The notes below the pieces were generated by a model. It had not been told where the DNA came from. It saw only the letters and a list, made by a program, of their open reading frames with translations, and ran no database searches. From Escherichia coli (lineage in GTDB: Bacteria; Pseudomonadota; Gammaproteobacteria; Enterobacterales; Enterobacteriaceae): a stretch of DNA of 64,000 nt. The position numbers and the translations under genes are program-made. The stretch lies in the NCBI RefSeq assembly GCF_029227855.1, contig NZ_CP074356.1; one strand, written 5' to 3'. Positions 8,888 through 28,855 of the stretch are shown piece after piece; the stretch's first letter is position 1; the number at the start of each line of letters is the position of its first letter.

Positions 8888-9775
8888 ATGGATGCAAAAC
8901 AAACGCGGCAGGGCGTATTACTCGCTCTTGCCGCTTATTTTATTTGGGGTATAGCGCCAGCGTACTTCAAGTTGATTTACTACGTGCCTGCCGATGAAAT
9001 CCTGACGCATCGCGTGATCTGGTCGTTTTTCTTTATGGTGGTGCTGATGAGCATTTGCCGCCAGTGGTCCTATTTAAAAACGCTGATTCAGACGCCACAG
9101 AAAATTTTTATGCTGGCAGTCTCTGCCGTGCTGATTGGTGGCAACTGGCTACTGTTTATCTGGGCGGTGAACAATCACCATATGCTGGAAGCGAGCCTTG
9201 GTTACTTTATTAACCCGCTGGTGAACATTGTGCTGGGGATGATTTTCCTCGGCGAGCGATTCCGCCGGATGCAATGGCTGGCGGTGATTCTGGCGATATG
9301 TGGCGTGTTAGTCCAGCTGTGGACTTTTGGTTCGCTACCTATTATCGCGCTGGGACTGGCATTTAGTTTTGCCTTCTACGGTCTGGTACGCAAGAAGATT
9401 GCCGTTGAAGCGCAAACCGGCATGTTAATCGAAACCATGTGGCTGCTGCCCGTGGCGGCAATTTACCTGTTTGCTATTGCCGACAGCTCAACCAGCCATA
9501 TGGGGCAAAACCCGATGTCGCTGAATTTACTGCTGATCGCCGCCGGTATTGTCACTACCGTACCGCTGTTGTGTTTTACCGCCGCTGCCACGCGCTTGCG
9601 TCTCTCAACGTTAGGCTTTTTCCAGTACATTGGCCCGACGCTGATGTTCCTGCTGGCTGTGACGTTTTATGGTGAAAAACCGGGTGCCGATAAGATGGTG
9701 ACTTTCGCCTTTATTTGGGTGGCGCTGGCAATTTTTGTGATGGATGCGATTTATACGCAGCGTAGAAAAAGTTAA
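8888..9775 (+). CDS. rarD: EamA-family permease RarD
   Basis: 295-aa, 10-TM-like hydrophobic ORF; synteny. Confidence 0.9.
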   Translation: MDAKQTRQGVLLALAAYFIWGIAPAYFKLIYYVPADEILTHRVIWSFFFMVVLMSICRQWSYLKTLIQTPQKIFMLAVSAVLIGGNWLLFIWAVNNHHMLEASLGYFINPLVNIVLGMIFLGERFRRMQWLAVILAICGVLVQLWTFGSLPIIALGLAFSFAFYGLVRKKIAVEAQTGMLIETMWLLPVAAIYLFAIADSSTSHMGQNPMSLNLLLIAAGIVTTVPLLCFTAAATRLRLSTLGFFQYIGPTLMFLLAVTFYGEKPGADKMVTFAFIWVALAIFVMDAIYTQRRKS

Positions 9776-9821
9776 GAATTAACATGGGTAGGCCGTTTAA
9801 AGAGCCTACCCACTGACTTAT

Positions 9822-10136
9822 TTATCTTTTTTTGAAAAAAATTAAGATAAGAAAAAGAACAATATTTGTTACAGGAAATACCCCCAAAACTCCCCAGTAC
9901 TTACTCCATCCTAGAGACATCGTATATCTACCAAGGATTTGACAAAACCCAAAACTTAACCCTATACCTATACTTCTTAAATTTAATGTCGTAGTCAGGC
10001 TTAAAATAAATAGAACAAGGATGGTAATAGCCCACCACAATAACCATGCCTTAACAAAATCAGATTTTTTGCTGTAAGGTTCTTTACCCAAGAACAACTG
10101 CCAAAAGTTACCATTTCCCATATAGAATCCATTCAC
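9822..10136 (-). CDS. small hypothetical membrane protein (104 aa, GTG start), low-GC
   Basis: ORF with 2-3 predicted TM segments (AWLLWWAITILVLFILSLTT; VLGVFPVTNIVLFLILIFF); AT-rich; may correspond to one of the small yigF/yigG-type genes of this interval, but I cannot verify that. Confidence 0.4.
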   Translation of the reverse strand: MNGFYMGNGNFWQLFLGKEPYSKKSDFVKAWLLWWAITILVLFILSLTTTLNLRSIGIGLSFGFCQILGRYTMSLGWSKYWGVLGVFPVTNIVLFLILIFFKKR

Positions 10137-10333
10137 CCAAGATATTGTTTATAGAATAAAAATACATTTCAATTATATTTAATTAAAATATACCCCATCA
10201 ATAAAAACTTACACACTCTAAATTACTACTGTATAGTTATCAATGCAAAGACTGCTATATTGCATATATATATGCAAACCACATAATTCAGGTAATATAT
10301 ATTCAAAACAATTATATATAAAACAGTGTAAAA

Positions 10334-10720
10334 ATGTTCAAATTATCCATCAGAAATATATTCTACCCATCCAGGCTTGAGCGTTTATCACGCTTTCAGT
10401 TCATAATCTATACATTAACATCATGGTCAATATTAATAACTTTGAATGATATCAACCTGGCTTTGAGTTTTATTCTGGTTATTAATAATACCTATGTAAA
10501 TATCAATATTGGAGCAAAAAGAATAAGAGATACTGGATGTAAGGCAATCTACTTTGTATTGATTTCATTGGGCTTGACACTTTTTTCTATTATCTCTGCA
10601 GCAATTGAAGGGATGAGATGTGAGTCATTAAGCGTCCAACTCAACGTGGCATGGATATTATTCACAACAATTATGTTATCTGCGATTCCCTCGGCTAAAA
10701 TGTCGCTGTCAGCACACTAA
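10334..10720 (+). CDS. small hypothetical inner membrane protein (128 aa), low-GC
   Basis: ORF with about 4 hydrophobic segments, preceded by a very AT-rich 200 bp region; ends 25 bp before the duplicated corA 3' fragment (convergent). Confidence 0.45.
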   Translation: MFKLSIRNIFYPSRLERLSRFQFIIYTLTSWSILITLNDINLALSFILVINNTYVNINIGAKRIRDTGCKAIYFVLISLGLTLFSIISAAIEGMRCESLSVQLNVAWILFTTIMLSAIPSAKMSLSAH

Positions 10721-10744
10721 CTTACTCACAGCGACATCGTATAG

Positions 10745-10883
10745 TTACAGCCAGTTCTTACGCTTAAAGTACAGATACGGTGTCAGGCCCGCGAGGATCA
10801 TAAAGATAATCGCGCCAGGGTAGCCGAAGCCCCACTTCAGTTCTGGCATAAACTCAAAGTTCATGCCATAGCTGGAGGCAATC
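10745..10883 (-). pseudogene. duplicated 3' fragment of corA (last ~46 codons and stop)
   Basis: About 135-140 bp nearly identical (about 8 mismatches) to 12456..12595 at the true corA 3' end; encodes ...[43 protein letters not shown] versus ...[29 protein letters not shown] in intact corA. Confidence 0.8.
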
Positions 10884-11071
10884 CGCGTAGGAAAAAGTTT
10901 CCTAATCGGTAAATTCAACATTTTGTTATTAACAATGAGCAAGACCAATCATTAACGAGGTTCTCTTCAGAGATGTAATGAAAAAATGTGAAGTTTACTT
11001 CTTTTTTAAATATTTTTTTACCCTAGCATTTGTTCTCGAATTGATATTGAGCTTAAATATAACCAAGGCAA

Positions 11072-11926
11072 ATGCAAATGAATAACATATTACTTCCGCC
11101 AATTAATATTCCCTGTACACTTTTCGAAACTATTAGTTTATTCGATGATTTTTCTGCTGATGATATGCAATATGGTGATATGGTAGAACAAGACTTTCTC
11201 TCACTCGGCCTAAGCGATATCTCAGCAAAAGTTGATCCTTACAGACTTATTAAATACCATTTCCCTGGCCCAGGTTCTATTAATGTTGCTTTTAGTGCCT
11301 CAAGTTCCGGAACAAAAATATCACAACGTGAATGCACTGATATTTTATTTGCAGAAATGAAAGAACTAGCAAAAATGCTTTCCTTTTTTGGACAATATAA
11401 AACACTTATCGAAGATCTGATTGAACATTTTAGATATGGAAATGGCAGCAATTTTCATAGCCAACAATTAAATTTATCTTTTCATGAAAAAATAAATAAA
11501 TATGGTTATAATAGTCCAATACGAATAATCAAAGAATGTATCGAAAATGGCATTAATTCAACTCCCTCGACAGGATACCAACCTCTTATCCTGCAAAGCA
11601 TTAAAACCAAATTACTTTCATCAAGACTAAATAAATTTAATGACTTCGAGGACAGTTTTAATGGCTTAGGAATCAGTGTTCATGATATTTCAGCTCAAAA
11701 AATATCTCTTTTAAGTTTTCAAAAATACGCTATAGGATGGAGTGCAACAATTCATTTTGTAGCACAGGACCACTTCGGTCTTGATGTAACTGATATCAAA
11801 AACAAGACTTACAGCAAATATAGATTTTTTCGCATATGGTTCTTTTTACAACGGCATAAAGACTTTGCTTTCAAACCTTTTTTCACCAATTTTAACACTA
11901 TCGAAAGAATCGAAAATTATCTATGA
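11072..11926 (+). CDS. hypothetical protein, 284 aa, no recognisable motif; first gene of a low-GC two-gene cassette
   Basis: Long ORF in a region of about one-third G+C; AAGG Shine-Dalgarno 7 nt upstream; no signal peptide or TM segment evident; stop overlaps the start of the next ORF (ATGA). Confidence 0.6.
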   Translation: MQMNNILLPPINIPCTLFETISLFDDFSADDMQYGDMVEQDFLSLGLSDISAKVDPYRLIKYHFPGPGSINVAFSASSSGTKISQRECTDILFAEMKELAKMLSFFGQYKTLIEDLIEHFRYGNGSNFHSQQLNLSFHEKINKYGYNSPIRIIKECIENGINSTPSTGYQPLILQSIKTKLLSSRLNKFNDFEDSFNGLGISVHDISAQKISLLSFQKYAIGWSATIHFVAQDHFGLDVTDIKNKTYSKYRFFRIWFFLQRHKDFAFKPFFTNFNTIERIENYL

Positions 11927-12414
11927 AAAGCAAACTCCAGAAAATTATATTATGTTTATTTCTTCTATGCTGCATCTATAATTTATGGACATTGCGTCCT
12001 GTACAGATTTTGTATACATACTCTGATGCTGGCAATTCAGTCTTTCTGGTCGTTGATCATCTGCCATGGACTGACAGCGATAAAATAAATTGGTATCTGA
12101 AGCATCAGAATGAAATTAAAAATCAACATCCCCTACCAGAAGGTAGTTGGCATACCTGGTATGTCATTGATATCGGTAATGGCTTCACTGACTATAAAAA
12201 ATATATCGAAGGGCCGTATGAAGATCTCTACTGTTTCCCGACAATTAAGAGCAATGATAATTGCATCGTGAAAAATTACTTAATGGTTATTAATGAATAC
12301 CCTTATCGTAACACTCATATTGGTATTAACGATTTTACTGAGTATCAATTAACACAAGAAAATAAAATAGAGCGAGTTTTCAATCCGCATGACTTTAAAT
12401 ACGACAATTTTTAG
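11923..12414 (+). CDS. hypothetical protein, 163 aa, with N-terminal signal peptide or membrane anchor; second gene of the cassette
   Basis: N-terminus MKSKLQKIILCLFLLCCIYNLWTL (basic then hydrophobic); Tyr/Trp/Asn-rich remainder; translationally coupled to the upstream ORF; ends 41 bp before the corA stop (convergent). Confidence 0.6.
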   Translation: MKSKLQKIILCLFLLCCIYNLWTLRPVQILYTYSDAGNSVFLVVDHLPWTDSDKINWYLKHQNEIKNQHPLPEGSWHTWYVIDIGNGFTDYKKYIEGPYEDLYCFPTIKSNDNCIVKNYLMVINEYPYRNTHIGINDFTEYQLTQENKIERVFNPHDFKYDNF

Positions 12415-12455
12415 AAATAAGCCGGATAAAAAAATAGCTTTATCCGGCACTCATA

Positions 12456-13406
12456 TTACAGCCAGTTCTTGCGCTTAAAGTACAGATACGGTGCCAGGCC
12501 CGCGAGGATCATAAAGATAATCGCGCCTGGGTAGCCGAAACTCCACTTCAGTTCTGGCATAAACTCAAAGTTCATCCCATAGCTGGAAGCAACGAGCGTC
12601 GGCGGCAGGAATACCACGGATACCACCGAGAAGATTTTGATGATGCGGTTCTGCTCGATGTTGATAAAGCCCATCGCCGCCTGCATCAGGAAGTTCACCT
12701 TCTGGAACAGGGATTCGTTATGCGGCAGCAGGGATTCGATATCTCGCAGGATTTCACGCGCCTGCTCCAGTTGCCCACCCGGTAAACGCGCCTTGCGTAC
12801 CAGGAAGTTGAGCGCACGCTGGGTATCCATCAGACACAGGCGAACTTTCCAGCCGATATCTTCCAGTTCCGCCAGCGTGGAGAGCGCCTCATCGTACTCA
12901 TCGCCCTGATGCCCTTCCATAATTACCCGGCTCAACTGCTCCAGATCGCTGTAGATATTTTCAATTTCATCTGCCAGCTGTTCGATTTTGGTTTCGAACA
13001 GATCCAACAGCAGCTCGTAGGCGTTACCGTCCACCATTGACTGGCTACGGGCGCGCATACGATACAGACGGAATGCAGGCAGTTCACGCTCACGCAGAGT
13101 AAACAGACGACCATCACGGATGGTAAATGCCACAGTGGAGTTACCGGCGTGATCTTCCGCATCTTCAAAGAAGAAGAAGGAGTGAATATGCAGGCCGTCA
13201 TCGTCTTCAAAGAAACGTGCCGATGCTTCGATGTCTTCCAGTTCCGGGCGGGTTGCCAGGCTCTGGCCAAGTTCAGATTGTACGCGCAGTCGCTCGTCGT
13301 CGTCCGGTTCGACAAGATCAATCCATACTGCATTTACAAGGGGTTGTGACTCTTCGACTTCCAGCCGGGTCAGTCGGTTATTTTCCAGTTGAAATGCGCT
13401 CAGCAT
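12456..13406 (-). CDS. corA: Mg2+/Co2+ transport protein CorA
   Basis: 316 aa from [12 protein letters not shown]; C-terminal TM helices with the YGMNF signature (GMN motif). Confidence 0.93.
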
Positions 13407-28430: not shown

Positions 28431-28855
28431 CCGTTTATTATGCCACAGAGAATCGGGAAATAACATCCCTTAACACTTGTTATGAGATAATTCTGTAATC
28501 CTCTTTGCTTCCTGAGTAATAACTTCCTGAGTGAATATTTAACCTGAGCTTGATCCTACACATACTTATTATGAATGATAAAATTCATTCAATTAATAAC
28601 ACATATATTAATTGCCGTTAAAACTAAAAAAAAGCATCAATAATCAACGCGATATAATAAACCTGCCTTACATATCAACTGCGCCAGAGGTAGGATTGAA
28701 AACGCTCTCCTGATTTTCCAATTCATTTTCTGGATAAATAAATAATTTATTTTTGTCACTATTATTTATGTAATCATCCTGTCAAGGAGAGGGATCTCAA
28801 TTATCAATGCTTAATTACGTCATCATTTTGATGACATGAAACCGGAGCATTTTGC

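Follow-up and report, generated by a model that had tools for sequence, protein, structure and literature searches.

Two predicted small membrane-protein genes, divergent about an AT-rich spacer, form an alternative to yigG-yigF between rarD and corA in Escherichia coli

We examined positions 9776..10744 of a 64,000-nucleotide stretch of Escherichia coli contig NZ_CP074356.1 (hereafter, the window). The interval lies between rarD on its left (8888..9775, plus strand) and a 3′ fragment of corA on its right (10745..10891, minus strand), giving the gene order rarD(+), ORF99(-), ORF128(+), corA′(-). A first-pass annotation had described two small, strongly hydrophobic membrane-protein ORFs, divergent about an extremely AT-rich spacer, and this description was upheld throughout. 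Both ORFs are present in the ORF list where they had been placed, at 9822..10136 (minus strand) and 10334..10720 (plus strand), with GRAVY scores of 0.70 and 0.77, respectively. AlphaFold2 models returned three long helices for ORF99/104 and four for ORF128. The sequence separating the ORFs (10137..10333) was 21.8% GC, compared with a window-wide 51.9%; an equally low GC content was seen in only 0.03% of 197-bp windows across the 64 kb, with the minimum (20.8%) starting at 10139. Taken as a whole, the interval was 32.2% GC, within the lowest 0.7% of 969-bp windows. An Rfam scan of 9600..11100 yielded a single match, a chance hit to a plant snoRNA (E 0.63).

The minus-strand gene, ORF99 (9822..10121), is predicted from its PGAP annotation, orthologues, and dN/dS to encode a three-helix, 99-aa inner-membrane protein. 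ORF104 is the mechanical ORF form, of 104 aa with a GTG start at 10136; PGAP annotates a 99-aa hypothetical protein. PGAP and cross-genus comparison both lead us to favor the ATG at 10121 over the GTG at 10136. The GTG is lost through a 1-bp deletion in IAI1-type strains, and the ATG is kept everywhere. A start upstream of the ATG and in the same frame, preceding N-G-F/T-Y/H, is also found in Salmonella and Pseudocitrobacter. Orthologues at the same site were found in Pseudocitrobacter (62% identity), Salmonella (60%), and a metagenomic enterobacterium, locus L011 (46%), with dN/dS of 0.15-0.18. The AlphaFold2 model (mean pLDDT 79.8) placed helices at residues 19-43, 48-69, and 74-95.

On the plus strand, ORF128 (10334..10720, ATG start) is predicted from its orthologues, dN/dS, and hhalign comparison to encode a four-helix, 128-aa inner-membrane protein. 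Orthologues shared 47-48% identity in Pseudocitrobacter and Salmonella and 31% in L011, and dN/dS was 0.12-0.2. Helices were modeled at residues 20-37, 42-66, 71-92, and 99-117 (mean pLDDT 75.9); a Foldseek search of this model against the PDB gave nothing below E 1. No CDS annotation for ORF128 was present in the eight RefSeq genomes inspected, and thus a conserved gene under purifying selection is missing from every inspected RefSeq annotation of its E. coli carriers. The start codon reads ATG in ~997 genomes and ATA in ~356. As the ATG is missing from about one-quarter of the E. coli genomes with the cassette, ORF128 may be disappearing. Since dN/dS in unsaturated comparisons was 0.15-0.2 for each, we conclude that both ORFs encode proteins. 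Searches of PADLOC and PHROGs found no match for either protein, and profile searches against PDB sequences found nothing meaningful.

The two genes diverge from a 212-bp spacer (10122..10333), the most GC-poor stretch of the window, which would hold their promoters and has 22-23% GC and 36 TpA steps. Between genera, the spacer is poorly conserved, with the exception of ~25 nt beside the ORF99 start and the block ATATTTAATTA. A candidate sigma-70 promoter for ORF99 (10172..10201, minus strand; TTGATG-18 nt-TATAAT) matches 10 of 12 consensus positions, consensus match being its one line of evidence, and its -10 hexamer falls inside the ATATTTAATTA block common to Escherichia and Salmonella. For ORF128, a consensus scan gave a candidate at 10208..10237 (plus strand; CTTACA-18 nt-TATAGT; 9 of 12 positions), which is weak evidence because other genera do not share it. 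Promoter-like sites in the spacer were not in excess, at 9 compared with 6.9 ± 2.5 in shuffled sequence. The 10-mer TCGATAAATT, which we take to be a high-affinity H-NS motif, had no match in the spacer at up to two mismatches. In K-12, the extended protein occupancy domain that contains yigF-yigG is silenced (PMC8282354), and yigG contains H-NS-repressed intragenic promoters (PMC7229825). By analogy, the spacer described here is a probable H-NS target, and H-NS silencing of the present cassette is plausible.

Each end of the interval carries a hairpin. A G+C-rich hairpin (9784..9813), identified by terminator scanning and folding, lies where rarD and ORF99 converge; its folding energy is -17.3 kcal/mol (z -4.8) on the plus strand and -19.1 kcal/mol (z -4.9) on the minus strand, the z-scores being relative to shuffled sequence. 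A hairpin occupies the equivalent position in Salmonella locus L009, and that at 9784..9813 is probably a bidirectional terminator. At the other end, folding revealed a hairpin with 10-bp arms enclosing the ORF128 stop codon (10700..10737; -23.2 kcal/mol and z -4.6 on the minus strand, -16.7 kcal/mol and z -3.2 on the plus strand). The U-run that follows it on the minus strand marks it as the predicted terminator of an ancestral convergent corA. Positions 10672..10744, which include this hairpin, remain in strains from which the cassette has been lost.

We then examined the distribution of the cassette. Its occurrence within E. coli is patchy: of 5426 complete genomes, ~1430 carry ORF99/ORF128, ~2960 (2962) yigG-yigF, and 2632 a DUF3289/DUF943 module; across these genomes, the three combine freely. 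The corA fragment in our window belongs to this separate, later DUF3289/DUF943 toxin-immunity insertion. Carriers of the present cassette include O157:H7, O104:H4, and many Salmonella serovars; a literature search with the EDL933 locus tags Z5334-Z5339 found nothing. Elsewhere, rarD and an intact corA flank the divergent pair in Pseudocitrobacter (L005), in Salmonella-type contigs (L009/L010), and in L011. The first-pass annotation had proposed that the ORFs are old acquisitions beside an insertion hotspot. Their age is supported by the identical rarD-corA site in four genera, and the interval did prove to be a site of insertion and replacement. We did not find what would have countered that first description, namely clear identity to well-characterized conserved proteins of ordinary base composition throughout their relatives; the orthologous cassettes are all equally AT-rich (32-35% GC). 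True plasmids and phages yielded no relatives: the only two "plasmid" matches were records of 1.0 and 4.8 Mb, and tblastn in 50,697 phage records detected none. A peptide-pattern scan of genome contigs returned only E. coli-like DNA and missed Salmonella; three of its four loci were contigs in metagenome-assembled genomes labeled as gut anaerobes.

Comparison with "empty-site" strains such as S87 showed that an 842-bp segment (9830..10671) is missing from them. S87 retains the ORF99 stop codon and the final 15 codons of ORF128, and the deletion junction carries TTATCT microhomology. As the ends of both ORFs are retained, the "empty" site is a deletion derivative, and the extent of the 842-bp deletion shows the cassette to be the ancestral state in E. 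coli.

Next, we compared the two proteins with those encoded in the K-12 rarD-corA gap. The ORFs had been tentatively named as the small yigF/yigG-type genes of this interval, an identification that did not hold: a different cassette occupies the site. By BLASTP, ORF128 shared 27-29% identity with YigG (~124 aa aligned, E 5e-8 to 7e-5), and ORF104 matched neither YigG nor YigF. Alignment of ORF128 with the YigG family by hhalign (probability 95.6%, E 1.3e-8, 112 columns) indicates homology over the whole length, though only remote. On the NCBIfam YigG equivalog model (NF008474/PRK11371, curated cut-off 217 bits), ORF128 scored 25.9 bits (E 8.2e-6), below the cut-off, and ORF104 had no match. 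K-12 YigG (b3818) is 126 aa in length compared with 128 aa for ORF128, and the two share a four-helix hydropathy pattern, a Y-x2-I-N-x4-R-x-R-D-x-G loop, and a periplasmic-loop cysteine. Both come from the rarD-corA gap, and yigG DNA is just as AT-rich (34.7% GC). However, yigG is the rarD-proximal gene of a tandem with yigF, both co-oriented with rarD, whereas ORF128 is on the corA side and divergent from ORF99. ORF128 and YigG are alternatives, not orthologues. YigF is, like ORF99, a small membrane protein from this gap, but no similarity between the two was detectable by BLASTP, hhalign, or Pfam. The DUF2628 profile (PF10947) is matched by YigF (E 3.7e-10) but, at E up to 10, neither by ORF99 nor by its orthologue in Pseudocitrobacter. 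Overall, the two cassettes resemble each other in site, composition, and the encoding of small membrane proteins, and differ in sequence and gene order. The K-12 cassette is documented as silent and heavily protein-occupied, while silencing of the present one is proposed only by analogy.

Both families also show traces of DUF805 (E. coli YhaH/YhaI, COG3152), whose members have a basic N-terminus, two helices, a basic loop, and a helix with a conserved Pro. Neither of our proteins reached the Pfam gathering threshold (PF05656, 25.7 bits). ORF128 gave a sub-threshold match (13.1 bits, E 0.13), as did K-12 YigG (17.3 bits, E 0.007), and ORF99 itself gave none. Two distant relatives of ORF99, P0110 and P0107, matched the family over its full length (22.8 bits, E 1.3e-4; 15.2 bits, E 0.031), so that matches of YigG, ORF128, and these relatives, all sub-threshold, span most or all of the profile. 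The genomic context of P0107 and P0110, on short metagenome contigs, was uninformative. Between helices 2 and 3, ORF128 carries the DUF805-type basic loop KRIRDTG, which reads RRLHDxG in DUF805; both ORF128 and YigG have a fourth helix in addition to the DUF805 layout. As judged from sequence, ORF128 is a remote YigG homologue with a weak DUF805 signal. ORF99 is likely to be DUF805-like but highly diverged, with a tie to the family that appears to run only through its distant relatives. Its hhalign match to YhaH/YhaI was weak (E 0.015, probability 3%), and its GRYTMSLGWSKYW, followed by VLGVFPV, was weakly paired with YhaH RRLHDTDRSAWWALLFLIPF in this alignment. ORF99 thus seems by inspection to fit the DUF805 architecture, though the fit is not statistically secure. 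IMG places members of both families in COG3152 and labels them "YhaH (DUF805 family)", a 99-aa cluster member among them. Belonging to DUF805, a domain of unknown function, would reveal little about mechanism.

In the literature, genes that are not orthologous share the name yigG. Published phenotypes of Salmonella LT2 yigG (PMC3579871, PMC4219756), the only such data for a gene of this name, were considered as evidence on ORF128 and rejected, as they concern the K-12-type gene; the knock-out primer arms indicate that LT2 carries K-12-type yigG-yigF. The LT2 phenotypes are not transferable to strains with the present cassette.

We can postulate an explanation that joins these observations, and we hold it with moderate confidence: the interval would be an old alternative rarD-corA cassette of two real membrane-protein genes of the DUF805 kind, H-NS-silenced, accessory, and eroding. 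The rarD-corA gap of enterobacteria would hold at least two such old alternative cassettes, of which the present interval is one. Its two genes would be transcribed outward from the 212-bp, ~22% GC spacer, with hairpin terminators insulating them from rarD and corA. Both products are predicted to be of the YhaH/DUF805 kind: small, polytopic, and located in the inner membrane, with a basic cytoplasmic N-terminus, a helix pair, a conserved basic cytoplasmic loop, and then one further helix (99 aa) or two (128 aa). The 128-aa protein would be a distant paralogue of K-12 YigG and the 99-aa protein a yet more divergent relative. During ordinary growth, H-NS would bind and largely silence the cassette DNA, as we infer from K-12 yigG-yigF. 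The products may then be dispensable accessory membrane components that alter envelope behavior, rather than enzymes or transporters. The cassette would evolve fast, yet under purifying selection, and in E. coli it would be eroding as strains delete it outright, lose the start codon of ORF128, or have yigG-yigF in its place.

Other readings of the locus were weighed against this one. Direct orthology with K-12 yigF and yigG could appeal to the shared gap and to the distant similarity of ORF128 to YigG, but is extremely improbable given that the tandem K-12 genes have no nucleotide similarity to the interval, that ORF128 reaches only 25.9 of the 217 bits set as cut-off, that ORF99 is unlike YigF or DUF2628, and that the two cassettes alternate across the 5426 genomes. 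It is also very unlikely, if a little less so, that the ORFs are chance frames or dead pseudogenes in AT-rich non-coding DNA. Such a reading would fit the lack of RefSeq annotation for ORF128, the failure of either ORF to exceed a family threshold, the ~356 genomes with ATA in place of the ORF128 ATG, and the deletion of the whole interval in some strains. Against it, the frames are open and the arrangement is kept across four genera at 46-62% and 31-48% amino acid identity, dN/dS stays at 0.12-0.2 even at dS of 0.6-1.5, and the AlphaFold2 models are confident helical bundles. ORF99 has some features of a holin (~100 aa, three membrane helices, a KKR tail and charged C-terminus, two in-frame starts five codons apart, and AT-rich DNA), which raised the thought of a phage-lysis or mobile-element remnant. 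With no PHROGs match, no tblastn relatives in the 50,697 phage records, "plasmid" matches confined to the two records of 1.0 and 4.8 Mb, and no endolysin, integrase, or repeat boundaries present, such an origin is hardly credible, and the empty PHROGs and phage-record searches led us to reject ORF99 as a holin.

Two further readings assign the proteins a partner. MgtR and MgtS are enterobacterial small membrane proteins that regulate Mg2+ transporters. With these as precedent, the cassette could encode modulators of the flanking CorA Mg2+/Co2+/Ni2+ channel or the RarD EamA exporter, in keeping with a rarD-corA linkage conserved in four genera and with an alternative cassette at the equivalent place. 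This is improbable, as an identical CorA (WP_000947159.1) occurs in many E. coli strains with no cassette at all or with a non-orthologous one, terminators part the genes from both neighbors, and evidence of co-variation or fusion was not found. Alternatively, the proteins could be of immunity type, acting against membrane-targeting T6SS effectors or pore-forming bacteriocins, either linked to DUF3289/DUF943 or standing alone. They are small inner-membrane proteins with three or four transmembrane helices, AT-rich, fast-evolving, and polymorphic; the neighboring DUF3289/DUF943 genes are an effector/immunity pair of a validated type (PMC11148199), and E. coli and S. enterica each seem to be polymorphic for the two cassette types. 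Yet Salmonella, Pseudocitrobacter, and L011 have the pair but not DUF3289/DUF943, and the module is also found with yigG-yigF or with neither cassette. Neither protein matched PADLOC, PHROGs, or any Pfam immunity family, and the divergence is old, with purifying rather than positive selection. We consider an immunity role unlikely.

In practical terms, these results matter mostly for annotation and housekeeping, and their biological value is modest. The locus offers a compact case of alternative AT-rich small-membrane-protein cassettes at one site in several genera, and a convenient test case both for the roles of DUF805-type proteins and for the persistence of H-NS-bound accessory genes under purifying selection. 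Were the proteins exclusion or immunity factors, the locus could represent an ancient polymorphism shared across species at rarD-corA and maintained by balancing or frequency-dependent selection, a reading to which we give little weight. Two non-orthologous cassettes, the divergent ORF99/ORF128 and the tandem yigG-yigF, seem to coexist within both E. coli and Salmonella enterica, and the adjoining colicin-M-like T6SS effector/immunity pair hints at a role against phages or membrane-targeting toxins.

The window holds the E. coli recQ-pldA-yigI-rarD ... corA-ysgD-yigE region, and two small ORFs lie between the 3′ end of rarD (at 9775) and a 3′ fragment of corA (~137–147 nt, from 10745). The smaller, on the minus strand at 9822..10136, encodes 104 aa from a GTG start (ORF104; ORF99 if read from the ATG at 10121), and the larger, ORF128, on the plus strand at 10334..10720, encodes 128 aa from an ATG. 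Both products are strongly hydrophobic, with GRAVY values of 0.70 and 0.77, respectively. The spacer between them (10137..10333) has a GC content of 21.8% against a window mean of 51.9%, a level reached by only 0.03% of 197-bp stretches in the 64 kb, and the lowest-GC stretch of that length (20.8%) begins at 10139. The ORF list, hydrophobicity, AT-richness and location are all as the first-pass annotation had described them. Outside 9.8–12.5 kb, the only other 197-bp stretches in the window with ≤30% GC lie in 28433..28790 and 62887..63160.

The further suggestion that these might be yigF/yigG-type genes did not hold. The order in K-12 MG1655 is rarD-yigG-yigF-corA, the two small genes sharing the strand of rarD, and no DNA similarity was found between the K-12 yigG-yigF segment and the studied interval. 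By BLASTP, ORF104 matched neither K-12 YigF nor YigG, and ORF128 shared 27–29% identity with YigG, scoring 25.9 bits on the NCBIfam YigG model, where the cut-off is 217. YigF matches Pfam DUF2628 (E 3.7e-10), and the 99-aa protein gave no match to that family. With no DNA similarity, 27–29% identity at best and no YigF or DUF2628 match, we rejected identity with K-12 yigF/yigG; the divergent pair and yigG-yigF are alternatives at a site prone to recombination.

At the profile level, the ORF128 and YigG families align over their full lengths (hhalign probability 95.6%, E 1.3e-8), and residues invariant in both include Y54, I57, N58, R63, R65, G68, and C96, with D66 kept in all but one member. 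Helices 2 and 3 of ORF128 are joined by a KRIRDTG-type loop (R63–G68), which resembles the RRLHDxG loop of the DUF805 proteins YhaH and YhaI, though DUF805 matches were sub-threshold for both YigG (E 0.007) and ORF128 (E 0.13). For ORF99, only 16 of 1.84 billion representative proteins were matched in a profile search, and the full-length distant ones (P0107, P0109, and P0110) cover essentially the whole DUF805 profile; the best DUF805 score among these relatives was 22.8 bits (E 1.3e-4), just below the gathering score of 25.7. Direct hhalign of ORF99 against YhaH/YhaI aligned the expected loop and the Pro-containing helix, weakly (E 0.015). In IMG, "YhaH (DUF805 family)" is the label of a 99-aa member as well as of a protein of the ORF128 type. 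In AlphaFold2 models, the 99-aa protein has three long helices (pLDDT 79.8) and ORF128 has four (pLDDT 75.9). The placement of charged residues suggests a cytoplasmic location for the N-terminus of each protein and for the conserved loops.

The pair is best described as a real, old, and dispensable two-gene cassette for small, predicted DUF805/YigG-like inner-membrane proteins, adding members to a known protein kind rather than forming a separate one. No function of DUF805 was found in the searchable literature, and neither protein matched solved structures, defense families, or phage families. That the pair is an immunity or exclusion cassette, maintained as a polymorphism common to several species, strikes us as improbable.

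In three further settings, the divergent pair is again found next to rarD, this time with an intact corA on its other side, bearing out the earlier proposal that the cassette is old; the corA fragment and the DUF3289/DUF943 genes found in the window are absent from all three. In Pseudocitrobacter corydidari, the small protein is 98 aa (62% identity to ORF99) and the large 127 aa (47% to ORF128); in Salmonella enterica-type contigs, 98 aa (60%) and 126/157 aa (48%); and in a metagenomic enterobacterium, 94–101 aa (46%) and 128 aa (31%). NCBI and UniRef both assign the Salmonella protein cluster to Salmonella enterica, with many serovars. These cassettes have 32–35% GC within flanks of ~54%. Nei-Gojobori dN/dS, taken where dS was unsaturated, was 0.15–0.2 for both genes, and dN between E. 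coli and Salmonella was 0.30 and 0.45 for the two small genes, compared with 0.058 for rarD and 0.015 for corA. By these comparisons, both ORFs are real, old genes that are fast-evolving yet constrained. Against locus L006, from an Escherichia lineage, window positions 10100..10500 (L006 5790..6170), taking in the spacer as well as the 5′ half of ORF128, fall to 58–77% identity on a background of 92–95%. Here dS is 1.5 versus 0.2–0.28 in the flanks, with a dN/dS of 0.12, which indicates a recombinational mosaic with an imported allele rather than positive selection.

Across complete E. coli genomes (n = 5426; modules scored at ≥80% coverage), the divergent cassette was present in 1430, the K-12 yigG-yigF cassette (including an allele ~79% identical) in 2962, and the DUF3289/DUF943 module on the corA side in 2632. 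This last module (10745..12602 in the window) is an insertion separate from the ORF99/ORF128 cassette, occurring independently of which small-gene cassette adjoins it. It carries a DUF3289/YPO3983-family gene (11072..11926) and a DUF943 gene (11923..12414), whose products are reported to be a colicin-M-like T6SS effector and the matching immunity protein (PMC11148199). A direct repeat made up of the final ~137 nt of corA flanks the module on both sides, and its two copies, in the fragment (10745..10881) and at the 3′ end of the full gene (12456..12592), are ~93–95% identical. The modules combine freely: K-12 has yigG-yigF alone, GN03551 has DUF3289-DUF943 alone, BL21 has yigG (pseudogene)-yigF followed by the corA fragment and DUF3289-DUF943, and S87 has neither. 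The "empty" site of S87 still contains the 99-aa gene's stop codon along with the final 15 codons of ORF128, with TTATCT microhomology at the junction, so we read it as a deletion of 9830..10671 and not a virgin site. S87 also lacks yigE. A second variable spot (loci L002, L003, and L013–L015; beyond window position ~13600) lies between yigE (or ysgD) and uvrD, where some strains carry a SAM hydrolase/SAM-dependent halogenase family gene, absent from K-12 and from a record labelled DH5alpha.

In Salmonella Typhimurium, "yigG" (STM3954) is chlorine-regulated, and mutants lacking it attach less well (PMC3579871) and are mildly more motile (PMC4219756). The reverse complement of knock-out primer JKS-16 encodes a YigF-like start (MDKDYINDGSLSEKW), and JKS-17 comprises the rarD 3′ end followed by K-12-like spacer; LT2 therefore has the K-12-type cassette rather than the divergent pair. 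These phenotypes were accordingly ruled out as evidence on ORF128, and inform on the YigG family only in general terms. Together with the divergent pair in Salmonella contigs, the primer arms imply that S. enterica, like E. coli, would contain both cassette types.

Hairpins flank the pair at 9784..9813, between the convergent rarD and 99-aa gene (z ~ −4.8 on both strands), and at 10700..10737, enclosing the ORF128 stop codon (z −4.6 on the minus strand); the latter is followed by a U-run on that strand and is therefore read as the terminator of the ancestral convergent corA. An Rfam scan gave no match. Sigma-70 consensus matches of 10/12 and 9/12 lie on fitting strands of the spacer, where such sites are no more numerous than in shuffled sequence, and between genera the spacer is conserved solely in ~25 nt beside the 99-aa start and in a ATATTTAATTA block. 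TCGATAAATT, an H-NS high-affinity site motif, is not enriched in the spacer. Composition makes H-NS binding to the cassette likely, and the cassette is probably H-NS-silenced by analogy with K-12, whose cassette at the same site falls inside a silenced extended protein occupancy domain (PMC8282354) and whose yigG contains intragenic promoters repressed by H-NS (PMC7229825).

In RefSeq, the product of the 99-aa gene is listed as a hypothetical protein. In IAI1-type strains, a 1-bp deletion removes GTG 10136 and creates a frame of 114 aa beginning at an upstream ATG. In O104:H4 FDAARGOS_348, owing to an 18-bp tandem duplication (CCCATATAGAATCCATTC; corresponding to ~10119..10136), the 5′ end of the 99-aa gene encodes residues GNGFYM twice. 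Because the DNA just upstream varies in this way, we favor ATG 10121 as the working start. The ORF128 start (10334..10336) is ATG in ~997 genomes (966 + 31) and ATA in ~356, including IAI1, O104:H4, and TW10828, with the remainder of the frame open; the ATA start is seen at loci L022, L023, L024, L017, and L018. ORF128 had no annotated CDS in the 8 RefSeq (PGAP) genomes inspected, despite conservation in four genera and purifying selection, and no feature among the matches listed in the survey of 5426 complete genomes. It was called, as APY06467.1, in the original GenBank entry for strain XH990.

Several database records holding the locus appear mislabelled. The E. coli locus turns up, at 96–100% protein identity, in contigs (L016, L017, and L018) of MAGs filed under Collinsella sp., Alistipes sp., and Clostridium sp., probably through binning contamination. 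CP061233.1 and NZ_OL790696.1, filed as plasmids in PLSDB (1.0 Mb and 4.8 Mb), contain the chromosomal locus and look like chromosomes or chromosome fragments. Finally, NZ_CP026085.1 (4.83 Mb), labelled E. coli DH5alpha, carries the divergent cassette with DUF3289/DUF943; as yigG-yigF occupies the site in K-12 MG1655, and the same yigG-yigF DNA is present in BW25113, this label looks doubtful.
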